Shown here piece by piece: positions 9,203 through 38,672 of a stretch of 64,000 bases of DNA. Every line of letters begins with the position of its first letter. Positions within the stretch are counted from its first letter, which is position 1. The notes under the pieces were generated by a model, which saw only the letters and a list, made by a program, of their open reading frames with translations, was not told the origin of the DNA and ran no database searches. The stretch is from NCBI GenBank assembly GCA_944391715.1, contig CALXUP010000006.1, positions 1,895 to 65,894 on the forward strand. Reading direction: 5' to 3'. The position numbers and the translations under genes are program-made. This DNA is from an uncultured Alphaproteobacteria bacterium. Its GTDB lineage: Bacteria; Pseudomonadota; Alphaproteobacteria; RF32; CAG-239.

Positions 9203-9603
9203 TCTTTTTCTCCTAAAGCATATCTAAAAGTAACACTGTTGGCCTGTACACCATTATAAACAAAAACCTGGCCCTTGCCGATGTAGAACATTCCCCTGCC
9301 TGTATCTGCACTTGTTTTGGGAATTCCACTGTTGAAAATGGTATTTGTTCTGGCCGTATCATCATACATCAAAGCCTGTCCATAAACATTTGAACCATCT
9401 TGACCGATTTGGATGTAGCCGTTTGCAGGAGCCTGAAAATTTGCCTGAGGCGCTAAAGATACGGATATCGTTCTGTTACTCGGCGCAACGCCGGACAAGA
9501 GTGTGCTCCGTCCTGTTTCACTGAGATTTGCCAAATCAACATCCGCTTTGTTGTTCAGCGCCTCGAGAACCTGTCCCGGTTCATAATCTACCTGTTCCGA
9601 CAT
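9199..9603 (-). CDS. hypothetical phage tail protein
   Basis: 134 aa. Start overlaps the stop of the tail fibre gene. Gly/Asn/Ser-rich, beta-like composition. Confidence 0.4.
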   Translation of the reverse strand: MSEQVDYEPGQVLEALNNKADVDLANLSETGRSTLLSGVAPSNRTISVSLAPQANFQAPANGYIQIGQDGSNVYGQALMYDDTARTNTIFNSGIPKTSADTGRGMFYIGKGQVFVYNGVQANSVTFRYALGEKE

Positions 9604-11231
9604 TAGTTTTCTCCTTCTGCATAGTAAAATCTGAATCTGTTCAACGTTCCGCCACAGTCATAATAAGCCGTAAAAACATCGTCTTTTTTTACGGCGAGAC
9701 TGACAACTGCATTTGTTGATGCTGTCGGGACACAACAACGATAAGCCGTTTTTCCTTCCAAGCTTACAAACTGATTGGCGGCGTTTGACGTTTTGGATAA
9801 TACGACCCAGCCGTTGGCCGGTGCCGTATAAGACGCTCCGCTGGCCTGCAGCGCTAAATCCGTATATTTTTCGGATGCCATCGGTAATGAAGAAAGTAAG
9901 ACTTTTCCGGCTGCCGATAAATTGCCGCAATCAGAATCCACCTTGTCGTTCAGACTTTCCGCAATCTCTCCGACATCAATCAGATTGTCGTTTTTTATCG
10001 TATTACCGACAAAGAAGTAGAGATACATCTCTACCGCCCGCTGCTGAACCGATGCCCCGTCCTGATAGGCAGAAGAACAACGAGAAGCATCAAATTCAAT
10101 ATTCCCTTGCGAGTTGCTAAATACTTGCAACCCCGTTCCTCCTTGGCCGCTATATGCTTTTTGATAAAATCCTCCTGAAATACGATTCAATGCCGTATAA
10201 TTTGTTGAAAAAGCACCCGTGATGTTTGGCAAACTTTCAGGCACATAAGCTCCAACGTTGTTACGACTGCCGACGAAGCCCCATTTTGTCCGGGGAAGCT
10301 TGAAACGTCCGTTTTCCGTATCCAGAATATAATACCACGCCACACCGGTACTTTCATATAATGCGGCGATATTTTCTGCCTGCTCCGGTGCGCAGATTTT
10401 ATAGCCTTTGGGCGTTTTCTTATAAGTAATTGCAATATTGTCGACGGTATCCGTTGTTTCTGCAGATGCCTCATCGGCATATTGGGAAGCCAATTCATTA
10501 TACGCGGCAAAATATACGCCGCCGTCCTGCCAGCTGAACGTATCCGCCCGCAGCCAGCTTGCCGACTCCGGTTTATGATCAAACCAGGCCGGTTGAAAAA
10601 GTTCATAGCCGACATCGGCATTTTCAGCGGCAACTTTGGCTTCTCCCGCCCAATATTCCGAGCTGCCTTCCGGTTGTTCTTCAATCGTACCGACCGCCCA
10701 TTTTCTGGCAGTTTCTACAAGACCGGCAGCCGTCTCCGCCGAATCAGAAGCATTTAACGCGCTGCTTTCTGCCTGTGCGGCAAATGACGAGGCAGAAACT
10801 GACGAATTCTGAGCATTTTCTGCACTGGCAGCAGCATTTCCGGCGGCAGTTTCGGCTTCGGAAACAATTGTTTCAAGCTGAGGCTTTATTGTTTCGTCAG
10901 CGTATTGCTGCAGTGCCGGTTCGGCCGTGTTCTCGACATAAATATTTATTTCCGCTTTTGCCGTTTCTATATCTTCGGCAGTTTTTTCGGAAATCTTTTC
11001 GATGTTTTTACCGGTATGTTCGGAAACCTCCTGTTTTTTTGTTTGGGTATAGTCATCCAACTCCGGCTTGGCATGGTTATTGACATAAGCCTGAATCTCT
11101 TCTTCACCCGACTTGATATAAAAAAGAGGCACGTTGATATCCAACTGTACCTCTTCCTGGAACAAGACTTCAATCTTCTGTCCGGTTCCGTTAAAAACGG
11201 TAATGCCGTTTTCTTCATTTACAAAACTCAT
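9603..11231 (-). CDS. phage tail fibre protein
   Basis: 542 aa. N-terminal helical repeats (ISEKTAEDIETAKAEINIYVENTAEPALQQYADETIKPQLETIVSEAETAAGNAAASAENAQNS) typical of fibre shafts. C-terminal Gly/Ser/Asn-rich beta region with an LPNITG motif shared with the tail-collar protein. Confidence 0.7.
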   Translation of the reverse strand: MSFVNEENGITVFNGTGQKIEVLFQEEVQLDINVPLFYIKSGEEEIQAYVNNHAKPELDDYTQTKKQEVSEHTGKNIEKISEKTAEDIETAKAEINIYVENTAEPALQQYADETIKPQLETIVSEAETAAGNAAASAENAQNSSVSASSFAAQAESSALNASDSAETAAGLVETARKWAVGTIEEQPEGSSEYWAGEAKVAAENADVGYELFQPAWFDHKPESASWLRADTFSWQDGGVYFAAYNELASQYADEASAETTDTVDNIAITYKKTPKGYKICAPEQAENIAALYESTGVAWYYILDTENGRFKLPRTKWGFVGSRNNVGAYVPESLPNITGAFSTNYTALNRISGGFYQKAYSGQGGTGLQVFSNSQGNIEFDASRCSSAYQDGASVQQRAVEMYLYFFVGNTIKNDNLIDVGEIAESLNDKVDSDCGNLSAAGKVLLSSLPMASEKYTDLALQASGASYTAPANGWVVLSKTSNAANQFVSLEGKTAYRCCVPTASTNAVVSLAVKKDDVFTAYYDCGGTLNRFRFYYAEGEN

Positions 11232-18424: not shown

Positions 18425-18640
18425 TTATAATTCTGACTTTATAACGGTGCAAAAAGTTATACAATAAATATAACCAAATAGAAGAATGCTTAATAGCAAT
18501 ATTCTAATAATGTATTTCCAATGACGAAAATAATTTATTGCTTTTATTTTATCAAAAAATTTAATAAGTAAACCTGAAGAATCTGTATCTTTAATACTAG
18601 ATTCTTCAAGTCGTTTTTGTTCTTTTTTTGTTTTTCTCAT
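18425..18640 (-). CDS. small tail-anchored membrane protein, KTKKEQ family (member 1)
   Basis: MRKTKKEQKRLEESS...AINYFRHWKYIIRILLLSILLFGYIYCITF. Basic N-terminus, C-terminal TM. AT-rich. Confidence 0.45.
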   Translation of the reverse strand: MRKTKKEQKRLEESSIKDTDSSGLLIKFFDKIKAINYFRHWKYIIRILLLSILLFGYIYCITFCTVIKSEL

Positions 18641-18644
18641 ATTA

Positions 18645-19673: not shown

Positions 19674-19889
19674 TTACCAATCTAATGAAGAAAAAAAGAA
19701 ACACACTGCAAATATAAATACAAAGAACAATAAGATGTCTAATAAAAATAATTTCCAGAGTCTTTCACCTTGCTTTTTGTAATCAAGCTTATTAACTTTT
19801 TCTATCAGCTTAGACCAGCAGTTAGAAGAAGTTAAAAATTTTTCATTAACTTCTTCCGGACACATTTGTTCTTTTTTTGTTTTCCTCAT
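19674..19889 (-). CDS. small tail-anchored membrane protein, KTKKEQ family (member 2)
   Basis: RBS aagga + ATG giving MRKTKKEQMCPEEVNEKF...KLDYKKQGERLWKLFLLDILLFFVFIFAVCFFF. The longer ORF-track N-terminus is hydrophobic and lacks an RBS. Confidence 0.45.
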   Translation of the reverse strand: MRKTKKEQMCPEEVNEKFLTSSNCWSKLIEKVNKLDYKKQGERLWKLFLLDILLFFVFIFAVCFFFSSLDW

Positions 19890-20044
19890 ATTAAATCCTT
19901 CCCGTCCAATCATTCTTACATATTTAATATTCCGTTTGTTACCATTGAGGCCATAGCTGCAAAATACATAAAAAATATAATTGAAGAGATATAACCAATT
20001 AACAATAAAATAAATTTTATAATCACACTCATAATCATCACTTT

Positions 20045-20233
20045 TCAAAGTATATATAAAAAGGTACCAATTGAATAAATAGCCAAAATTATTCCAAGGA
20101 TAAAAATTACTTTAATAATTTTCCAATGTTTTTTATAATCGATACTATTAATGAAATTATAAAAGCGGGAGAAAGCTGTTGTTTGCACGACAACTTCTCC
20201 CTCTTTCTTTTGTTCTTTTTTTGTTTTCACCAT
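20045..20233 (-). CDS. small tail-anchored membrane protein, KTKKEQ family (member 3)
   Basis: MVKTKKEQKKEGEVVVQTTAFSRFYNFINSIDYKKHWK + TM. About 80 bp of DNA (20150-20230) is identical to 20555-20640. Confidence 0.5.
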   Translation of the reverse strand: MVKTKKEQKKEGEVVVQTTAFSRFYNFINSIDYKKHWKIIKVIFILGIILAIYSIGTFLYIL

Positions 20234-20427
20234 ATTATCAAATATCCTTTATTTTTCAAATTTTATTCTTTTTTTTATTTTCAAAAGATACAATCATACA
20301 ATAAAACAGTTAATGACACTAACAAAAAAAGAGTTAAAGGAAATAATATGATATAAGAAAACGACAACAAAAAGAAGCGCATGAGCAAGAAGTATGTTTT
20401 TGAATTTTTCATATATATTCCTTTTTG

Positions 20428-20640
20428 TTAACTTAACCCATCAAAAGCATTTCCTGTCATAACAACAAAAGTTATTGTTAGAACGATGAAAAGAGTTATG
20501 TCTGCCAAAATCAACCAGCAAACATATTTAAAGTGTTTTTTATAATCGATGTTATTAATAAAATTATAAAAGCGGGAGAAAGCTGTTGTTTGCACGACAA
20601 CTTCTCCCTCTTTCTTTTGTTCTTTTTTTGTTTTCATCAT
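20428..20640 (-). CDS. small tail-anchored membrane protein, KTKKEQ family (member 4)
   Basis: MMKTKKEQKKEGEVVVQTTAFSRFYNFINNIDYKKHFKY + TM. Its first 35 aa are nearly identical to member 3. Confidence 0.5.
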   Translation of the reverse strand: MMKTKKEQKKEGEVVVQTTAFSRFYNFINNIDYKKHFKYVCWLILADITLFIVLTITFVVMTGNAFDGLS

Positions 20641-20703
20641 ATCATCAAATATCCTTTATTTTTCAGATACTTTGACAATATTAGATTTTTTTATATTTGT
20701 CTA

Positions 20704-25095: not shown

Positions 25096-25977
25096 TTATG
25101 GTTCCGCCCGTATTGACCGGCGTTTTTCCCGCCAATACATCAGCGGAAGCGGCAGCAGCATAGCCAGCAGGTTAAACAACGGGGCATAAGGGGCTATTAT
25201 CAGCAGCCAATGTCCGGAAGGAATGCCGTGAGGATAGACAGACAATTCGTAAATCAGGACAAAAGGCACCAGGAGCCAGAAATATGCCAACCATCCGAAC
25301 GAGGCCAGATAACGGCTGAGCAACGGCAGCTGCTGCCGGAATTTAATCAGGAAATCCGGTGTTTTAATAAATATCAGCCAAAACAGCTCCAAAGCAAAAA
25401 TTGTTCGCCAGATGTTTCCCGTCGTTTCCAGCTCCCGGCTGTTAAAACGCAATGCGCCTGCCGTGAGCGGCAAAAAGACAATCCAATAAAGTCCGCCGGA
25501 CAGCAACAAATTGAATATAAAACCTTTGGCATCGTCTGCCGGGTTATCTTTATCGCCCTCGATGATTTCCAGAGGGTCATCCGACCGCCGAAGCAGAAGC
25601 GTTATGCGGGCAAGCAGCAGGACTATCAGCGTTGAACCCCAGCAAACCCCGTATAAATTGTTTTGCAAGATATGCCTTATTTCTTCAGACAGCCGGGGAA
25701 ACCACGGCGTGAACGAAACGGCCAGAACCATGGCAAAAATCAGCGGCAGGCAGCCTTGAAACGCCAGATAACAGGCCAGGCGCGGCCGACGTTGGCGCAG
25801 TTTGTCGAAAGTTTCAGTTTTTAAGCGGAAAATTCGGACGAACCACAGCAGCAAAAGCAAATAAAGCATAATTTCGGAATATATCAGCCAGGCCTGAGTA
25901 CCCAACAGGCCGAAAATCAACCCCAACAACCAGTATATACCGAAGAAAATCAGCGTATTTTTTGAAAAAATATGCAT
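25096..25977 (-). CDS. polytopic inner-membrane protein (moron or superinfection-exclusion candidate)
   Basis: 293 aa with 8 or more hydrophobic segments. Normal GC. Inserted between the portal and scaffold genes. Confidence 0.55.
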   Translation of the reverse strand: MHIFSKNTLIFFGIYWLLGLIFGLLGTQAWLIYSEIMLYLLLLLWFVRIFRLKTETFDKLRQRRPRLACYLAFQGCLPLIFAMVLAVSFTPWFPRLSEEIRHILQNNLYGVCWGSTLIVLLLARITLLLRRSDDPLEIIEGDKDNPADDAKGFIFNLLLSGGLYWIVFLPLTAGALRFNSRELETTGNIWRTIFALELFWLIFIKTPDFLIKFRQQLPLLSRYLASFGWLAYFWLLVPFVLIYELSVYPHGIPSGHWLLIIAPYAPLFNLLAMLLPLPLMYWREKRRSIRAEP

Positions 25978-26160
25978 ATTGCCGCTCCCTTGTTTTTGAA
26001 TATGCGATAGAGATAATCAAAATCCGGGCAAAGGCAAGGTGGCGGAACAAAATAAAAGCAGGAACTTAATTATTCCCGCTTTGTTTTTTTAATCGCCTAT
26101 CCCCCAAATTGTAATCATAAATTCTTACAACAATATTTCCTTGACTCTTCTCCTTTTATC

Positions 26161-26350
26161 ATTATATTGTTCTTAGATTGTTCTGAGAGACCAGAAAGTG
26201 GTTGGTCACATATAAGAGTAATTTTATATTAGAGGATAATGGAACACGCGCCCATCCAGAGCAATTTAGAAAAGCCTGAATATGACGATATTCTTGTTTT
26301 TCCAGAGCCGGGATATGACGATATCCCGGCTCTGTTTTTTATTCCGTCTC
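26161..26350. repeat. direct repeat R1 flanking the secreted-protein moron (contains terminator-like palindromes)
   Basis: Shares with 27090-27250 the blocks ttgttct(t/c)agattgttctgag, gcgcg..ccatccag.gcaatttagaaaagcc and the perfect palindrome gagccgggatatgacgatatcccggctc. Confidence 0.55.
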
Positions 26351-26995
26351 TATCCAAAAATTTTCAGAAGTGACCGGCGTAAACTCTTTTTTATCCAAAA
26401 AGAAAGTTCTATTATACACTTTCCAATCAGCTCTCATATCATCACCGTCCCAATTATAATGGATATCAAGCAACGGATTTGACAGATGAGTTAAATCAAA
26501 TTGTACGGAAGTTATCATTCTGCCATTATTGAGGCTTACTGCTTCCAGCGCATCAATAATGACTTTGTTATTCATTTTAACGGTCAGGTAAAATTGCTGA
26601 TAAATACCAGCGCTCCCTTCACCGGAAAGAAATTGATATTTATCTCCTATTTTATAATTTTTTTTCGGATTAAGCGCGTTTATCTGTACCTCAAATATCC
26701 TATTATCAATTTTGCAGGAAGCATTATAGCTCTTTTGCCACAATATTTTGTCATTATTATCAAGCTTATAAAGCGCCTGTAAATTATATAATCCGTATTT
26801 TTGAATATAATCCGCAGATTGTGTCAGTAATTTTTCCTGCAGGTCTTCACTGGTACGTGGATGTTCTACCGTCATATACAGGCTTTTTAGTTCCGGCCGG
26901 CACTGAATGCGCAAAAAATCATTCCAGAAATCTGCCTTGGCAGAATTGCAGCATAATATTCCAACAAGTCCTATTAAGACAACATATTTTTTCAT
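26339..26995 (-). CDS. secreted protein (signal peptide), AT-rich moron
   Basis: RBS aaggagag + ATG. MKKYVVLIGLVGILCCNSAKA then a hydrophilic N/K/Y-rich domain of ~195 aa. Confidence 0.55.
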   Translation of the reverse strand: MKKYVVLIGLVGILCCNSAKADFWNDFLRIQCRPELKSLYMTVEHPRTSEDLQEKLLTQSADYIQKYGLYNLQALYKLDNNDKILWQKSYNASCKIDNRIFEVQINALNPKKNYKIGDKYQFLSGEGSAGIYQQFYLTVKMNNKVIIDALEAVSLNNGRMITSVQFDLTHLSNPLLDIHYNWDGDDMRADWKVYNRTFFLDKKEFTPVTSENFWIETE

Positions 26996-27089
26996 GCTCT
27001 CTCCTTTGATAATAATAGTAATTATAATAATTGAACACAATAATTTTACAAGCAATAATTTAATCTTTCGTGCTTGACTTTCTTAAGAC

Positions 27090-27250
27090 AAATGCTACAT
27101 TGTTCTCAGATTGTTCTGAGGGCCAGAAAATCACGCAGTGGTGTCCACTGGTTTGTTAGTGTAGATATATGATGGAGAAGCGCGTGTCCATCCAGTGCAA
27201 TTTAGAAAAGCCGGGATATGACGATATCCCGGCTCTGTTTTCAGAATACA
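27090..27250. repeat. direct repeat R2 (partner of 26161-26350)
   Basis: See R1. Includes the hairpin ctcagattgttctgag and the palindrome gagccgggatatgacgatatcccggctc + TTTT. Confidence 0.55.
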
Positions 27251-27301
27251 AAAAAGCAGGCGGAGATATCTCTGCCTGCGGTTAAAACAAAAAAATTCCG
27301 T

Positions 27302-29474: not shown

Positions 29475-29480
29475 GAAGTT

Positions 29481-29575
29481 TCTCCTTATCTTGTTTGGGG
29501 TTATAAAAAAATCCCGCCGGGAAAATTGCACAGCGGGATAAGCAAAAGTATTGAAGCTATTTTTCGGGAGCTTTA
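29481..29575. repeat. direct repeat D1 (copy of the terminase-downstream terminator+RBS region)
   Basis: ~95 bp nearly identical to 30906-30999: tctccttatcttgtttggggttataaaaaaatcccgccgggaaaattgcacagcgggataagcaaaagtattgaagctattttt. Confidence 0.6.
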
Positions 29576-29599
29576 CATAAACGGCGGACAATAAGCTGT

Positions 29600-30094
29600 T
29601 TAATGCTCATTTTCTGCCAAAATAATCATTATTATAAAGGCCAGCAAAGGCAGGCTTAGTACCAGACTTCCCATTCCGGCATTATATAATATGTTCCAAG
29701 TAACAGAAATTTGATTACTGATTGTTTTCATCATCAAAATGGCATAATAAGCAATCAGCCAAAGCAGATATTCAACGACCATAAAACGGCCGGTTTTTGA
29801 GATTTTCCAGAGTTTCGTTCCGATCTCCCGCAACAGCCAATATAACGGTATTGCCAAAAGGTAAATTCCGAAAACGGCACCGGCCGTTAGGCGGCAAGGC
29901 ACTCCGAGCCAATACCAATTGAACCAGCTTTGAAAGTTTATTTTTCCGACTATATCATCTTGCTGCCATAGGTATATGTCACATTGTGCTCCTTGCGTAT
30001 TATGGTTGATTACAACAGCGCCAATGCAAAAGATCAGACTTAAACAGACCATACTGGCAAAGATATATAAAAATTTTGGCCAAACACGAAACAT
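29600..30094 (-). CDS. 4-TM membrane protein, AT-rich moron
   Basis: 164 aa, very hydrophobic, AT-rich codon usage unlike the surrounding phage genes. Confidence 0.5.
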   Translation of the reverse strand: MFRVWPKFLYIFASMVCLSLIFCIGAVVINHNTQGAQCDIYLWQQDDIVGKINFQSWFNWYWLGVPCRLTAGAVFGIYLLAIPLYWLLREIGTKLWKISKTGRFMVVEYLLWLIAYYAILMMKTISNQISVTWNILYNAGMGSLVLSLPLLAFIIMIILAENEH

Positions 30095-30282: not shown

Positions 30283-30867
30283 ATGTTAAGTGTATTAAAA
30301 GACGCTATTGTTTTATTTCTGAGAAAAATAGACATTTTTATTGTATTTATTACACCGGTATTTTTAATAAATATTTTTCTCTTGCCCTCATCGATAAAAA
30401 TCCTGCTTAATGCCTTTGCTTATTGTATAACGTCTTTAAGTATATATCTTTATCTTTTGCATAACGATCTTTGTTTACGCTTTTTCTCTTTTCGGTTGTT
30501 TTTCTCTTATTTTTTGGCAGATTCTGCCATTGCCGCCGGTTATTTTATTTTGGTTTTTATTATTCAATTAATACCAATTTCCACAATCTGGCAGGTTTTA
30601 TGCGTCTATCTGCTAGGCTTATATTTTCTATGTCGCTTAAGTTTAATTCCGGCCTTGATTGCCGCTCAAAAAACGATATCGATACAAGATATTTTATTCA
30701 AAAACAAAAACAGTTATTTTCAATGGATGTCAGCGGCCACGGTTCTCTATCTTCCGTTTTTTCTGAGCAGGGTATTTATTCCTGAGGGAATTTCTCTTGC
30801 TTTTATAACATCATTACAAACTCCACTTTTATGTTGTTTTTATGTTTGTTATCTTAAAAAGCATTAA
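30283..30867 (+). CDS. polytopic membrane protein, AT-rich moron (divergent from 29600..30094)
   Basis: 194 aa, 5-6 TM, on the strand opposite the phage operon. Shares a 190 bp AT-rich intergenic region with its divergent partner. Confidence 0.5.
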   Translation: MLSVLKDAIVLFLRKIDIFIVFITPVFLINIFLLPSSIKILLNAFAYCITSLSIYLYLLHNDLCLRFFSFRLFFSYFLADSAIAAGYFILVFIIQLIPISTIWQVLCVYLLGLYFLCRLSLIPALIAAQKTISIQDILFKNKNSYFQWMSAATVLYLPFFLSRVFIPEGISLAFITSLQTPLLCCFYVCYLKKH

Positions 30868-30905
30868 TTAATTCCATATACTGTTTCATTTTGTGCATTT
30901 CCTTT

Positions 30906-30999
30906 CTCCTTATCTTGTTTGGGGTTATAAAAAAAATCCCGCCGGGAAATTGCACAGCGGGATAAGCAAAAGTATTGAAGCTATTTTTTGAGGGTTTTA
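30906..30999. repeat. direct repeat D2 (native terminator + RBS region immediately 3' of terL)
   Basis: Contains the hairpin atcccgctg..cggcgggat + T-run and RBS aaggagaaagg. See D1. Confidence 0.6.
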
Positions 31000-32346
31000 C
31001 CAGCCGGAATTATCTTTTTCACCAGCGGCGAGGGCAAACATTTCTTCTATTGAGACCTTGCCGTTGCCGTATAATTTCGGTTCACCGCAATCATAAACCG
31101 GTTCGGCAAAGGTTAATGCCAAAGCATCTCCTTTGTCCGGAGAGCGTCCAAGACGCTTTTTGACCTCATCTTTTTCTTCCATTTGCAACCTTCCTTTCCG
31201 GTCATATTTCTTATTGACCGCAGTTAAATCGTTAAACAGTTCTTCATCTTCGGGAAGCTGGACTGGCGGCTGAGATTTGAGCCACTGATTGACGCTGTCC
31301 CACATTTCGGCGCGCCGGTTGAAATAACGCTCTTCGTTAATTGCTTTTTCGCCAAAATAAATCCCGCGGATAATCTCCCCAAAACCGCGGTCTTTTAAAA
31401 TGTCATATACGCCGGCGCCCTGCCCACCGATATCCATAAAAATCCGGTACGGGCGGCATTCTTTGATAAAACGGGTTGCCAGATTGGCCACACCGACGTT
31501 GTCTTGTTTATAATAACTCTCAAAGCGGTAACACCACCGGCCTTTGCGAAAGCAAAAAGAAGTTGCGTCATCGCCGAATCTGGCAATATCCAATCCGATA
31601 ATCAGCGGCGAGGTACTCCCGTTCATTTTGGCTTCAAAAGCCCGGCGGACGTCGGTTCCGGAAATCAGCCTGGTATTGCTCTGCACGATCGGGGCGCCGA
31701 GCCAGATATGCGCATAGTCATCGGGTGAGTTTTTCCGGCATTTTTCGGCCTGATATTTGATTTCTTCCGGACAAAACGGGTTATCGTAATAATTGACGCA
31801 GCGGACAAGCGTTCTTTCATCGGGATTGGCGGCAACGGCCATCCACAAAGGATCGTTTTCTTCTTCACGGTTCATGGAAATCCAGATTTCGGAACCGTCT
31901 TTGCGAATCGTCGGCTCCAAAATCTCCCAGCTTTTTTTGCTGATGGTTTGCGCCTCTTCAATCCAGGCAATGTCCACACCTTCCAGGGATTTTATTTTCT
32001 GGCTGTCCTGATCGCGCAGGCCTTTGAAGATAAACTTTGTGCCGGTGATTGTGTTTTCTATTTTGGTTTCATAAATTTTATAATCGCCCAGAGAATAAAA
32101 AGAAATCCGGTCGCACAGAAGTTTGTGGACCGAATCTTTGATTGATTCCTGAATCTCCCTCAGGCAGGCGATAAAAAGCTTTTTCTGCCGCCCCAAAAAC
32201 AGCAGGCTGTCGGCAAAAGCATAAGATTTTCCGCCGGCACGTCCGCCGTAATAAAACTTAATCCGCTTTTTCTCGGTCATCAGCGGCGCAAACACCCGGG
32301 CCATCTCGGCACATTTGGTCTTGGGTTTGGCGTTTGTTTTTCTCAT
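30997..32346 (-). CDS. terL: terminase large subunit (PBSX/Terminase_3-like)
   Basis: 449 aa. Walker A-like YYGGRAGGKSYAFA, then GVDIAWIEEAQ (Walker B/coupling) and a nuclease C-terminus. The true start may be an internal Met (32304 or 32280) overlapping terS. Confidence 0.85.
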   Translation of the reverse strand: MRKTNAKPKTKCAEMARVFAPLMTEKKRIKFYYGGRAGGKSYAFADSLLFLGRQKKLFIACLREIQESIKDSVHKLLCDRISFYSLGDYKIYETKIENTITGTKFIFKGLRDQDSQKIKSLEGVDIAWIEEAQTISKKSWEILEPTIRKDGSEIWISMNREEENDPLWMAVAANPDERTLVRCVNYYDNPFCPEEIKYQAEKCRKNSPDDYAHIWLGAPIVQSNTRLISGTDVRRAFEAKMNGSTSPLIIGLDIARFGDDATSFCFRKGRWCYRFESYYKQDNVGVANLATRFIKECRPYRIFMDIGGQGAGVYDILKDRGFGEIIRGIYFGEKAINEERYFNRRAEMWDSVNQWLKSQPPVQLPEDEELFNDLTAVNKKYDRKGRLQMEEKDEVKKRLGRSPDKGDALALTFAEPVYDCGEPKLYGNGKVSIEEMFALAAGEKDNSGW

Positions 32347-33189: not shown

Positions 33190-33870
33190 TTATTTAAGTT
33201 TCTTTTTAATTGTCAGTGCATCTTCATTTATTTTATATCTAATTTTTTCTAATGCTTGTTTTATATTGTCTGCAGCAACTTTTCTCCATATATTTGTTTC
33301 ATTATACCCCCAATACATTGCAATAAAGTCGGAATTTACAACATTTTCTGTATATTTAGCAATTAACTCCTTTTTATTGTTCCATATTTCTACCTGTACT
33401 TCTAGGGATTGTGTTATTTCATTTACCGGAAAGCCTAAAATGTTAATTGTAAATAAGGAGAGCATAGAGGGTAATATATAAAAAATTGAGGTATCATTTC
33501 CCCGATACCCTAATTTCAGTGCAACATATCCCTTTTTCTCTCCATAAGGTGAAGAAATATTCTCTTTTACTTCTTTTTCAAAAATGTTTATAACATCGTT
33601 GACTCGTGCATCTTTATAAGACGTTCCATTTACTACGGTTGTTTGTGCCCATCCGGCCCAAGGATTTGCTCCGTATCCTGTACCATAATTATTAGCAATA
33701 CCTTGATAGCCCCCTGATGAATATACAGATTCTAAATTATTCATATCTACAACAGTGATTAACGCTGGCAATAAATTACTATTTGGTTTAATTTCTGGAT
33801 TAACATCATTATAACTTATTGATTTGCAAGCAGTTAGCATTATAAAAGATATTAGTAAAAACTTTTTCAT
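33190..33870 (-). CDS. lipoprotein, AT-rich moron
   Basis: RBS caggagaat + ATG. MKKFLLISFIMLTACKS with lipobox LTAC. ~226 aa, N/Y/G-rich. Confidence 0.6.
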   Translation of the reverse strand: MKKFLLISFIMLTACKSISYNDVNPEIKPNSNLLPALITVVDMNNLESVYSSGGYQGIANNYGTGYGANPWAGWAQTTVVNGTSYKDARVNDVINIFEKEVKENISSPYGEKKGYVALKLGYRGNDTSIFYILPSMLSLFTINILGFPVNEITQSLEVQVEIWNNKKELIAKYTENVVNSDFIAMYWGYNETNIWRKVAADNIKQALEKIRYKINEDALTIKKKLK

Positions 33871-34146
33871 AATATTCTCCTGACAAATTAACAAAAAACC
33901 ACCTTGATGAGAGGTGGCAGGAAGTTGAAAGCTATTTTCAGGAAATAGTGTAGTATATTTGTTAGATATAACGTATTTTACTACCTTCCTGCCATAAGGC
34001 AAAAAGGTAGTTTTTACATCTGCTCATGCAGAAAACCTGAAAAGGGGCTTTCAAACCCCGCATTGGTAATCAACCAATGCAAAAACTAAGCTATGCGAAA
34101 TGCCCCCGGAAGTCAAATAAAAAATGTTTTATAAAAATAGATATAA

Positions 34147-34900: not shown

Positions 34901-35536
34901 ATGAACAATATTAAAAATCTGCGCAAAATGCATCATAAAACCGTTACACAGCTTGCCGAGGCCGTTGGCGTTACCCAATCGACCATGACCAAAATCGAGA
35001 ACGGCAATATTTCCCTCAAAAGCGAAATGGCACAAAAAATTGCCGATTTGTTCGGTACAACGCTTGATAATGTCGTAAAATCCGAATTCGGACAGGTTTC
35101 GCCCTATGCATTCAGTCCGGCGGGCGTTTCGATGATTGAAATTATTGACGCGCGGGAATCCGTTGCCGAAAACAGTAATATCCTGACGCCGAAAGTTATC
35201 GGGCATCAGCTAGCAAATATTAATCTTTTTCCTCAACTTAAAAACATATCCCCCGATAAAATAAAGATTTTATCAATTTACGGAGACAGTATGCAGCCGA
35301 CAATCAATGACCAGGACGTTATCTGGGTGGATATCTCGGTTACCTCTCCGGAAAGCGACGGGCTTTATCTTTTCTGCATCCGGCAAGAGCTGCTGGTTAA
35401 GCGCATTCGCTTTGATATTTTTAACAATTCCGCGCTGATTTCTTCCGATAATCCGCTTTATCCGCCGCTGTCAGTCAATAATCCGGATCAGATAAAGGTG
35501 TGTGGAAAAGTAATTGCAGTTACGAAATTTATGTAA
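34901..35536 (+). CDS. cI: CI-like phage repressor (HTH_XRE N-terminus + S24 LexA-type peptidase C-terminus)
   Basis: 211 aa. The HTH region MNNIKNLRKMHHKTVTQLAEAVGVTQSTMTKIENGNISLKSEMAQKIADLFG is HTH_XRE-like. C-terminal S24 domain with a Ser in GDSMQPTI and a Lys in LVKRI. Confidence 0.8.
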   Translation: MNNIKNLRKMHHKTVTQLAEAVGVTQSTMTKIENGNISLKSEMAQKIADLFGTTLDNVVKSEFGQVSPYAFSPAGVSMIEIIDARESVAENSNILTPKVIGHQLANINLFPQLKNISPDKIKILSIYGDSMQPTINDQDVIWVDISVTSPESDGLYLFCIRQELLVKRIRFDIFNNSALISSDNPLYPPLSVNNPDQIKVCGKVIAVTKFM

Positions 35537-36516: not shown

Positions 36517-36602
36517 TGGTAGGGGTAGTCAGACTCGAACTGACACGGCCTGAGGCCACAAGATTTTGAGTCTAGCGCGTCTACCAGTTCCGCCATACCC
36601 CC
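36517..36602 (-). tRNA. tRNA-Leu (anticodon CAA)
   Basis: RNA: GGGGGUA-UG-GCGGAACUGGUAGACGC-G-CUAGA-CUCAAAA-UCUAG-long variable arm UGGGCCUCAGGCCGUG-UCAGUUCGAGUCUGAC-UACCCCU-A-CCA. The cloverleaf folds by eye with a 3-bp D stem and a long variable arm (class II). Anticodon loop CU-CAA-AA. Confidence 0.85.
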
Positions 36603-36719
36603 ATCAACTGGATGAATTAATAATATGTTTATTTCTGTTAGTCAACACTTTTTTTCATTTATTTTATCTGTTATTGTTTTTCTGACTTTATTTAACCTTT
36701 ATGCTTGAGGAAGTTGTTT

Positions 36720-37694
36720 ATGAAAATTCTGGTCATCGGCGGCGCCGGATATATCGGCAGCCATGTTGTTAAATCCCTGCTGTCTGCCCGGCACGAGGTT
36801 TGCGTTTATGATAATCTTTCGACCGGCTGCGCGCAGAATCTTTTTTCGGACGCCGGGTTTGTTCAGGGCGATATTCTGGATTATCCCGCCCTGCTCCGAG
36901 CGATGAAACAAAATATTGATGCCGTCGTTTTTCTGGCGGCAAAGAAAGCTGTCGGAGAATCGATGGAAAATCCGGGCAAATATGCCAACAACAATCTTAT
37001 CGGCGCCATTAATACCCTTAATGCCATGACCGAAACCGGCGTCGGAAAGATCATCTTTTCTTCCTCCGCAGCGGTTTACGGCCTGCCGGAATATCTGCCG
37101 GTTGACGAGCTGCACCCGACCGCGCCGATAAATTTTTATGGTTTTACCAAGCTTGATATGGAAAATTATATGAATTGGTATGACCGGCTGAAAGGTATTA
37201 AATTTATTTCGCTGCGCTATTTTAACGCCGTCGGTTATGATGAGGAAGGCGCCGTTAAGGGACTTGAAAAAAATCCGCAGAACCTTTTGCCGATTATTAT
37301 GGAAGCGGCTTGCGGCATTCGGAAAAAGGTGATGATTTTCGGCAATGATTATAATACCCGCGACGGAACCTGCATCCGCGATTATATTCACGTATCCGAT
37401 CTGGCCGGAGCTCATTTGAAGGCTTTGGAATATTTGCAGAAAAGCAATCAGAGCCAGATTTTTAACCTGGGGACGGAAAACGGCGTCAGCGTTCTGGAGA
37501 TGATTTTGAAAGCGCGCGAGATTACCGGGAAAGAGATTCCCTATGAATTTGCCGGACGACGCGCCGGGGATCCGGCCGTTTTGCTCGCCTCGGCCCAAAA
37601 GGCGCAAAAGCTCCTCGGCTGGTCAGCCGTTCACAGCGATTTGGAAAATATTATCGACTCCACCTGGAAGCTTTACAAACCTTCCGCGATATAA
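36720..37694 (+). CDS. galE: UDP-glucose 4-epimerase
   Basis: MKILVIGGAGYIGSH (NAD-binding GxxGxxG), then the YxxxK region in ...YGFTKLDMEN.... 324 aa. Confidence 0.85.
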   Translation: MKILVIGGAGYIGSHVVKSLLSARHEVCVYDNLSTGCAQNLFSDAGFVQGDILDYPALLRAMKQNIDAVVFLAAKKAVGESMENPGKYANNNLIGAINTLNAMTETGVGKIIFSSSAAVYGLPEYLPVDELHPTAPINFYGFTKLDMENYMNWYDRLKGIKFISLRYFNAVGYDEEGAVKGLEKNPQNLLPIIMEAACGIRKKVMIFGNDYNTRDGTCIRDYIHVSDLAGAHLKALEYLQKSNQSQIFNLGTENGVSVLEMILKAREITGKEIPYEFAGRRAGDPAVLLASAQKAQKLLGWSAVHSDLENIIDSTWKLYKPSAI

Positions 37695-37777: not shown

Positions 37778-37969
37778 ATGCAGAGAATAAATATAGCCAA
37801 TTATTTAATCGGGGAAATGTCTAACGGGCTGACAACATCTCCCAATATCCGGCACCGCCAGATTATTGACACGCTGGTCGACAACTGGGAGAAAAACCGT
37901 TATCCGGTTCCCGGGCATTCTTCTGCCGAGAGCAAAATTATTTTTAACAAATTCAAACATATCGGATAA
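37778..37969 (+). CDS. hypothetical small protein
   Basis: RBS ggaggag 6 nt upstream. 63 aa. Confidence 0.4.
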   Translation: MQRINIANYLIGEMSNGLTTSPNIRHRQIIDTLVDNWEKNRYPVPGHSSAESKIIFNKFKHIG

Positions 37970-37982
37970 GGACTGACATCTC

Positions 37983-38672
37983 ATGACAAAAATTCTGAAC
38001 CGCGGCGGCGTTGACATTACTTTTCTCGGCCACAGCGGTTTTATCTTTGAAAAAGACGGACACAAAATCGCCGTTGATCCTTTTTTGACCAATGCGCCAA
38101 TGGCTACCCGAAAAGCCGAAGACATCAGCGTTGACGATATTCTGGTAACGCACGGGCATGCCGACCATATCGGTGATTCCATAAGCATTGCCCAAAAGAA
38201 CGACATTACGATTACCACAACTTTTGAAGTCGCGCGTTATTGCCAGAGCCAGGGAGCAAAAGCCTTCGGCGTTCCGGTCGGCGTTGAACAGCTTTTTTCC
38301 TGGGGAAAGGCAATTTTCCGCCCGGCCGTGCATTGCGGGCTGCTGCCGGACAATACGCCTTTTAACATTGCAACCGGCATCATCTTTGATTTTGGCAGCA
38401 TTAAAATCTATCATATGGGCGATACGGCCATTAACCTTGATTTTAAGCTGGTTAAAGAAATTTACAAGCCGGATATGGCACTCATTCCCATCGGCGGCCG
38501 CGTCAATATGGATATTGAACAAGCAGCTCTGGCAGCAGAATGGCTGGGCGTTAAAACCGTTGTACCCATTCATTATGACCTGTTCACGCAAGGCCCCGTT
38601 AATCCGCAGGATTTTCAAAAACGGCTTGCCGAAAAGAACAGCGGTATTGAGTGTGTTATTATGGAGCCGTAA
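37983..38672 (+). CDS. metal-dependent hydrolase, MBL fold (UPF0173 family)
   Basis: HGHADHIGD motif (HxHxDH), 229 aa. Typical UPF0173 layout. Confidence 0.8.
   Translation: MTKILNRGGVDITFLGHSGFIFEKDGHKIAVDPFLTNAPMATRKAEDISVDDILVTHGHADHIGDSISIAQKNDITITTTFEVARYCQSQGAKAFGVPVGVEQLFSWGKAIFRPAVHCGLLPDNTPFNIATGIIFDFGSIKIYHMGDTAINLDFKLVKEIYKPDMALIPIGGRVNMDIEQAALAAEWLGVKTVVPIHYDLFTQGPVNPQDFQKRLAEKNSGIECVIMEP

Follow-up and report, generated by a model that had tools for sequence, protein, structure and literature searches.

In a 64,000-nt stretch of contig CALXUP010000006.1 (positions 1,895 to 65,894 of the forward strand; assembly GCA_944391715.1, from an uncultured alphaproteobacterium), hereafter the window, a prophage of ~28 kb occupies roughly 9–37 kb. 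Between the genes for a membrane protein (MP; 25096–25977) and the portal protein (27.3–29.2 kb) of this prophage lies an AT-rich gene for a putative secreted protein (Sec; 26339–26995, − strand), flanked by two related repeats, R1 (26141–26340, + strand) and R2 (27074–27241, + strand). The sequence-only reading of this region had described a secreted-protein gene bracketed by two repeats with shared blocks, and all the sequence features it described were found in the window. With moderate confidence, we interpret R1 and R2 as paralogous copies of a prophage small non-coding RNA (sRNA) gene, encoded on the strand opposite to the late genes, whose copies double as recombination substrates.

Three blocks are common to R1 and R2: the 5' block ATTGTTCTNAGATTGTTCTGAG (26166–26187 and 27099–27120), CCATCCAGNGCAATTTAGAAAAGCC (26252–26276 and 27188–27212), and the palindromic GCCGGGATATGACGATATCCCGGC (26307–26330 and 27210–27233). 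Each has two exact occurrences in the window, against 0.00–0.01 expected from shuffles. The repeats are nevertheless mosaic: their shared blocks are 92–100% identical whereas their ~60-nt middles are unrelated, giving a global identity of 75%. The conserved unit extends from the −35 hexamers (26141 and 27074) to the T-runs (26340 and 27241), and thus begins earlier than had been proposed.

The extra partial palindrome reported for R1 is present, as a 33-nt tandem copy (26273–26305) beside 26306–26338. A perfect palindrome followed by a T-run had been ascribed to both repeats; this is accurate for R1, which alone has the full 14-bp palindrome CAGAGCCGGGATAT/ATATCCCGGCTCTG, whereas R2 retains an 11-bp stem and only four Ts. 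R2 is derived through a precise 33-nt deletion between tandem hairpin repeats, by which one hairpin (P2, below) was lost, and two related loci (L004 and L007) show the same deletion. Elsewhere, most homologues of R2 have both hairpins, and P2 is intact in those of L001, L002, L003, and L008.

Sec comprises 218 aa from its ATG, with a signal-peptide-like N-terminus (MKKYVVLIGLVGILCCNSAKA, then D). Its GC content is 35%, as is that of the surrounding AT-rich island (26000–27100), compared with 42–57% in the flanking head and portal genes. A ribosome-binding site, AAGGAGAGAG, stands just upstream of the ATG at 26995, preceded by a promoter-like consensus match (TTGTAA, 16 nt, TATTAT; 27024–27051, − strand) that is back to back with the R2 promoter; the sequence upstream of Sec is kept in L037, a locus without an R2-type copy. 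Downstream of both Sec and the R1 reverse complement, a consensus match to an intrinsic terminator was found (T0; 26055–26082, − strand), which in locus L039 directly follows the Sec stop codon. Because T0 lies beyond R1 in the window, a Sec transcript would carry a 3' untranslated region of ~285 nt fully complementary to R1 RNA. At the other end, the palindromic terminator of the portal gene with its T-run (27256–27279, − strand) abuts the 3' end of R2.

Morons are accessory genes of temperate phages (Juhala et al. 2000, as cited in PMC4104026). Sec was rightly recognized as one: besides its AT-richness, it is equipped with a promoter-like site (27051–27024), a ribosome-binding site, and a terminator (26082–26055) of its own, and its presence among related phages is patchy. 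It is absent from L005, reduced to a remnant in L001, joined to different partners in L003, L002, L008, L036, and L037, and nothing of it was found in the more distant L012. Sec matched no Pfam or PHROG family, and its relatives among 5.8 billion sequences form only four protein clusters (78–97% identical), none of them outside this phage clade. Its AlphaFold model was unusable (pLDDT 40).

A promoter-to-terminator unit and its predicted RNA

Promoter scanning placed a sigma-70-type promoter (TTGACT, 16 nt, TAyATT) at the head of both repeats on the + strand. In R1, which carries module type A, the −35 element TTGACT (26141–26146) and the −10 element TATATT (26163–26168) predict a start at ~26175; in R2, of module type B, TTGACT (27074–27079) and a TG-extended −10, TACATT (27096–27101), predict a start at ~27108. 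Homology across the 18 distinct full-length copies of the family runs from the −35 hexamer to the T-run, with flanks that vary with the neighbouring gene, and TTGACT, the 16-nt spacing, TAyATT, and the terminator are kept in all full copies. The promoter spacer occurs in at least three sequence variants, yet its 16-nt length and both hexamers are fixed.

Each unit ends in an intrinsic terminator oriented for the + strand only. That of R1 has a 14-bp stem with eight GC pairs, a 4-nt loop, and six Ts; that of R2 (27209–27234, with its short T-run at 27238–27241) has the same orientation and is weaker. The predicted transcripts are 166 nt (R1) and 134 nt (R2) long, within a family range of about 134–170 nt.

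When the RNAs were folded from the predicted starts to the T-run, their first 11 nt (AGAUUGUUCUG) paired with the conserved block CAGAGCAAUUU in a long-range closing helix, P1 (26175–26185 with 26257–26267 in R1; 27108–27118 with 27193–27203 in R2, with one A-to-T mismatch in the 3' strand). This pairing would account for the joint conservation of the 5' block and the CCATCCAG...GCAATTT block. Stacked on P1 is a small conserved hairpin, P1b (GAUGG/CCAUC; 26238–26242 paired with 26252–26256 in R1), and the P1 domain encloses one of two unrelated, interchangeable middle modules, A (26186–26237 in R1) or B. A weak hairpin, P2 (AAAAGCCUGAAUAU-GACG-AUAUUCUUGUUUUU; 26269–26302 in R1), is followed by the terminator hairpin P3 (26303–26334) and the T-run (26335–26340). 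The R1 fold has a predicted energy of −61.9 kcal/mol (z = −7.1), and z-scores are −5.1 for a full-length B copy (from L001) and −3.1 for the window R2. A covariance model built from 15 copies scored R1 at 190.7 bits and R2 at 114.1 bits.

The consensus structure contains 43 pairs, with 97.8% of cells paired, compared with 35–52% when partners are slid. Only three pairs changed on both sides, at an effective sequence number of 1.2: two are P3 pairs with compensatory AU/GC exchanges, and the third (P2 109/122) reflects the terminator stem of the two P2-deleted copies, which were aligned into the P2 columns. One-sided changes mostly preserve G.U pairing (74 G.U cells vs 13 A.C cells), and because of this excess the structure is better on the + strand (97.8% paired) than on the − strand (89.6%).

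None of the known RNA families that we searched accounts for the unit. E-value scans with Rfam 15 over 25.5–31.5 kb and over a tandem pair of copies from L001 gave best scores of 10–25 bits against gathering thresholds of 36–440, all hairpin-only or noise, and the only tRNA- or tmRNA-like match returned by ARAGORN was a tRNA-Leu (36517–36602). Run over the prophage with filters off, the covariance model otherwise found only the opposite strand of each unit (whose hairpins are palindromic; 18–30 bits) and weak matches of at most 16 bits that on inspection were not homologous.

A coding function was also considered, in which each copy would encode a small protein of ~35–45 aa (MM..IQSNLEKPEYDDILVFPEPGYDDIPALFF). 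The frame is kept from a conserved ATGATG in 13 of the 18 copies, and the type A start lies beside GAGGA. In the other five copies, however, the frame is broken by a shift into an unrelated 14-aa peptide while the downstream DNA is still conserved, and the open reading frame (ORF) runs through both terminator hairpins to a stop codon in the variable flank, so that lengths range from 35 to 76 aa and no reading frame is conserved. GAGGA overlaps or abuts the ATG in type A, so its spacing is wrong for a Shine-Dalgarno motif, and type B has no such motif; moreover, the recurring PxYDDI motif is no more than the duplicated hairpin read as protein. We therefore regard the small-protein explanation as very improbable.

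Control at the DNA or leader level offers another explanation, in which the unit would be an operator-controlled promoter with an attenuator, either a relic of a lost + strand gene or a conditional antisense switch. Both a palindrome and a direct repeat, two ATTGTTCTnAG units at 11-bp spacing, overlap the −10 element and the start site, and a closing helix followed by two hairpins resembles the layout of a terminating riboswitch. Yet no + strand gene follows any copy in any locus, and the lack of any relationship between middle modules A and B leaves no conserved aptamer core. The operator idea was dropped because neither the palindrome nor ATTGTTCT recurs elsewhere in the prophage, whether at other promoters or in the repressor region. 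As a whole, such a cis-regulatory role seems scarcely probable.

Copies, arrangements and recombination in related prophages

We found about 27 copies, including some cut by contig ends, in 17 related loci with one to three copies per phage, all within one clade of gut alphaproteobacterial prophages. Loci L001–L004 came from an exact-pattern scan of one genome per species, in which only four species genomes matched; all four are related prophages of uncultured gut Alphaproteobacteria from humans (Hadza, HGUT, BRZ) and water deer. L005 was recovered in a metagenome scan with the 5' 21-mer, and L007–L011 and L036–L042 through look-ups of the Sec protein and MP. No related locus with sufficient coverage lacks the unit altogether, and copies always lie antisense to the late genes, at accessory-gene junctions downstream of the portal gene.

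Searches further afield were empty: two exact-pattern scans found no copy in 2.9 million IMG/VR viral contigs, megablast of 25–32.5 kb matched no GenBank phage, and none of 24 IMG/VR phages with 48–60% identical portal proteins carried a copy according to the covariance model. The family is thus restricted to a narrow clade of phages. A soil contig (L006; Ga0126378_10177370) matches the 21-mer TTGTTCTTAGATTGTTCTGAG exactly at 1751–1771, but a collection that large should yield about one chance match to 20 specified bases, and we set this one aside as coincidence. It lies on a high-GC contig, just upstream of an ORF that by eye resembles a winged-helix regulator.

Read from the portal gene towards MP, the window and L004 share the order portal-[B]-Sec-[A]-MP, to which L003 adds a 426-aa ORF, X (portal-X-[B]-Sec-[A]-MP). 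L002 has portal-X-[A]-[B]-Sec-[B']-MP, L008 has [A]-[B]-Sec-DUF5662-[A]-MP, and L001 ends in a remnant of Sec (X-[A]-[B]-Sec remnant); in these three loci, tandem copies stand with no cargo between them. Another set of loci contains g231, a 231-aa ORF whose match to phage lysozyme is weak and below threshold: portal-g231-Sec'-DUF5662-[A]-MP in L036, portal-g231-Sec-[A]-MP in L037, and g231-Sec-[B]-MP in L042, whose upstream end is cut by the contig. L005 is reduced to X-[A]-MP, and L039 reads [B]-Sec-T0-MP, with a clean copy-less junction between Sec and the next terminator. Sec therefore has a copy on one side only in L037, L042, and L039. In a further locus (L009, 1–4091), Sec is accompanied by an element copy truncated at the predicted start, its promoter replaced, and the neighbours, a family-2 glycosyltransferase gene and an ORF of 448 aa that matches GGDEF below threshold, are unlike the prophage late region.

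Several of these arrangements bear marks of exchange between copies, which are 90–100% identical in their outer blocks and hence suited as substrates for homologous recombination. The transcript part of the L005 copy is identical to copy A of L002, while its upstream flank and 5'-block C variant are as in L002 B', indicating that L005 arose when two copies in an L002-like arrangement recombined and the DNA between them was deleted. Copy B' of L002 is in turn a chimera of A and B, and in L003 both copies, A and B, have private terminator variants in common (ATGT...ATGT), which points to gene conversion between them. Between phages whose MP and portal genes are 57–87% identical, the A-Sec-B block is 84–96% identical, consistent with its recent exchange. 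The Sec C-terminus also changes after ...ENFW(I/K/R) with the arrangement (-ETE, -EAE, -GD, -ED, or -YVDFDELAKKM..., in the window at 26339–26360 and in L002, L008, L009, L036, and L039), its stop codon being supplied by whichever sequence is joined at GGATAG, which marks GGATAG as a recurrent junction.

These comparisons bear on the proposal that the repeats mark cassette boundaries. Copies do lie at accessory-gene junctions and recombine there, as the L005 deletion product indicates, but bracketing of a cargo gene is not the rule, given the tandem, one-sided, and copy-less (L039) arrangements.

The repeats had originally been taken for passive duplicated intergenic sequence, that is, terminator-bearing boundary modules or scars of moron acquisition with no RNA of their own. 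Their position at accessory-gene junctions would suit such an origin, as would the duplication of a 27-nt Sec 3'-end remnant to either side of R1, the absence of that whole segment from L039, and a second insert in the prophage with duplicated terminator-bearing intergenic flanks (29479–29576 and 30903–31000). A scar, however, would not be expected to retain a −35 element, a 16-nt spacer, and a −10 element through changes in spacer sequence, nor to start exactly at the −35. The hairpins are terminators for the + strand only, opposite to the flanking genes; the stems of these terminators show compensatory and G.U-preserving changes; and copies occur in tandem with nothing between them, with one retained in every covered phage. 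What is conserved is a whole promoter-to-terminator unit on the opposite strand, which argues against mere duplicated terminators or insertion scars, and we consider a passive origin unlikely, though it deserves more weight than the coding or cis-regulatory explanations.

Relative to L039, the window contains a 252-nt insertion carrying R1, bounded by two 27-nt copies of the Sec 3' end with its T-run (26083–26110 and 26334–26362). The duplicated remnant is GTTTTTTTAATCGCCTATCCCCCAAATT at 26083–26110 (+ strand), repeated as GTTTTTTATTCCGTCTCTATCCAAAAATT at 26334–26362. We read the segment as a probable product of duplication followed by deletion rather than of transposition.

A mobile cassette, either like a miniature inverted-repeat transposable element (MITE) or a substrate of site-specific recombination, could instead have inserted at CTATCC/GGATAG and brought or exchanged adjacent genes. 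This would fit the presence/absence polymorphism with CTATCC on both sides (26097–26102 and 26350–26355, compared with L039), the junctions of Sec, DUF5662, and the upstream flank of the element, all at GGATAG, the high identity of the Sec-plus-element block (84–96%) relative to its flanks (57–87%), and the presence in L009 of Sec with a 5'-truncated copy in a different neighbourhood. Yet the element has no terminal inverted repeats, and the flanking repeats of ~27 nt are Sec 3'-end remnants, fitting duplication then deletion and not a target-site duplication. Copies are confined to one prophage locus, with exact matches in four species genomes and in none of the 2.9 million viral contigs, and no transposase or recombinase was recognized by Pfam or PHROGs among ORFs of at least 150 aa and a few smaller ones. 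Insertion as a mobile cassette is accordingly very unlikely in our view. Recombination through an integron attC site or a bridge-RNA-like system was likewise rejected, as no recombinase gene was recognized among these ORFs and no core-site motifs were found. The MITE, attenuator or riboswitch, and small-protein explanations each fail on a defining feature.

In the wider prophage, all late genes lie on the − strand, and both RNA units and the repressor gene lie on the + strand. The prophage carries tail-fibre genes (11.6–13.3 kb), a GH108 lysin (14.6 kb), an amidase and a tail protein (15.9–18.1 kb), the major head gene (22.8 kb), and the large terminase (TerL; 31–32.3 kb). A CI-like repressor with HTH and S24 domains is encoded at 34901–35536 (+ strand), and the tRNA-Leu(caa) at 36517–36602 lies near the right end of the prophage, which is flanked by the host genes glgB and glgX on the left and cysS on the right. 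No integrase was recognized within the same Pfam and PHROGs scope, and the large ORFs at 9603–11231, 33190–34002, 36699–37607, and 37953–38618 matched no family.

Other repeats occur in the prophage. A 98-nt direct repeat (29479–29576 and 30903–31000, 90% identical) is a duplicated intergenic region between TerL and Cpn10 (GroES-like); it holds a − strand terminator and the ribosome-binding site AAGGAGAAA and brackets two AT-rich (25–41% GC) membrane-protein ORFs, at 29600–30094 (− strand) and 30283–30867 (+ strand). The Sec region had been credited with the same architecture as this insert at 29.5–31 kb, but the repeat there is of a different kind and the likeness is only loose. A 69-nt repeat occurs four times (18576–18644, 19825–19893, 20169–20237, and 20576–20644), with a variable hairpin followed by TTTTGTTCTTTTTTTGTTTTyCTCATATTA; small paralogous genes on the − strand appear to share these repeats as their 5' ends (MRKTKKEQ...). 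A 142-nt repeat (20120–20261 and 20527–20668) is 94% identical.

Proposed function and relation to known systems

We propose that the repeats represent a candidate sRNA family carried by prophages, with copies that also serve as recombination substrates. In the lysogen, the RNA would be transcribed from the strand that also carries the CI-like repressor gene, and it would act through base pairing. Its nearest candidate targets are − strand transcripts through its own locus: for R1 the 3' untranslated region of the Sec mRNA, and for R2 read-through from the late operon. Targets in trans in the host, outside the window, are also possible. Recombination between copies, as the locus comparison shows, deletes, duplicates, and reshuffles accessory genes between the portal and membrane-protein genes.

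A number of observations weigh against this proposal. Trans targets predicted within the window by RNAduplex against all translation-initiation regions were no better than those of shuffled sRNAs, and perfect complementarity of at least 11 nt to the 64-kb sequence was at chance level. P1 is near-invariant and, without covariation, has thermodynamic support only. The window R2 looks partly decayed, with P2 deleted, a mismatch in P1, and a four-T run. The palindrome CTyAGAttgtTCTGAG spans the predicted start site and might be an operator at the DNA level, not RNA structure, and the promoter, transcription start, and terminator are predictions from consensus. Finally, the copies are closely related, as their effective sequence number of 1.2 indicates, and their conservation could reflect recent spread and not selection.

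One stretch of Sec coding sequence (26867–26887, − strand; codons K-S-L-Y-M-T-V) matches the 5' arm of P2 (26270–26290) at 19 of 21 positions when both are read in the same RNA sense. In the DNA the two form an inverted repeat 576 nt apart, and none of 500 codon-shuffled Sec controls reached a 19/21 match to the arm. Either a common origin could have left this match, or it could serve for pairing within a Sec transcript in which the reversed element is included.

A more specific role in antisense immunity or processing is conceivable, in which resident RNAs would pair with the late transcripts of superinfecting relatives, or with the phage's own leaky ones, and trigger their cleavage, with modules A and B adding specificity and the resemblance between P2 and Sec tying Sec in. 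At each accessory-gene junction the predicted RNAs run antisense to the late operon, and they are 90–100% conserved between phages that are otherwise only 57–87% identical; they could thus pair with relatives' late transcripts, yet we consider this role quite unlikely.

To our knowledge, almost nothing is known about RNA regulation in the phages of uncultured gut Alphaproteobacteria. If transcribed, the units described here would constitute a new family of structured small RNAs in temperate phages of these bacteria. They also offer a concrete sequence-level case in which dispersed copies of a small, putatively functional gene can double as crossover points that shuffle accessory genes, with a deletion product, chimeras, and within-genome homogenisation all visible in public assemblies. 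The principle is not new, as sRNAs at moron sites and recombination at conserved junctions are known from enterobacterial phages.

We assign the elements to known classes only generically, as putative intrinsic terminators, a moron, and candidate sRNA genes. Among the Alphaproteobacteria, AbcR1 and AbcR2 (the alpha-r15 family) are tandem paralogous sRNAs, and the units described here are comparable in that adjacent paralogous copies, each with a predicted promoter and terminator, occur as B and A in tandem in L001, L002, and L008. The present units, however, match no Rfam family, these included, and are encoded by a prophage and not by the chromosome core.

GadY is a cis-encoded antisense sRNA that acts on a 3' untranslated region (E. 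coli gadX/gadW). The arrangement of R1 is similar: the RNA gene directly follows the 3' end of a protein gene, on the other strand, and because Sec would run through R1 to T0, the sRNA would find full complementarity in the 3' untranslated region of the mRNA. The analogy extends to layout alone, and the related locus L039 has Sec without such a copy.

Mosaic temperate phages carry conserved boundary sequences at gene junctions that act as crossover points. The Sec locus resembles them in having an AT-rich autonomous accessory gene between late genes and short junction sequences at which modules are shuffled, but its junctions consist of complete opposite-strand transcription units, as predicted, rather than short linkers or plain terminators.

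The lambdoid prophages of enterohaemorrhagic Escherichia coli (EHEC) encode the anti-sRNAs AsxR and AgvB, whose genes converge on moron genes and which form related groups, conserved in the 3' part and variable in the 5' part (Tree et al. 2014, PMC4104026). These are Hfq-binding RNAs of 51–60 nt with demonstrated targets (PMC4104026). The RNAs proposed here are predicted to be three times longer (134–170 nt), with a long closing helix and no sequence relationship to AsxR or AgvB, and they come from a prophage of an uncultured gut alphaproteobacterium. In both systems, nevertheless, sRNA genes, in our case candidates, lie beside a moron, and converge with it, in the prophage late region, occur as several related copies, and combine a conserved 3' part ending in an intrinsic terminator with a variable 5' or internal part. 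Judged by this analogy, the AsxR/AgvB set is the closest known kind.

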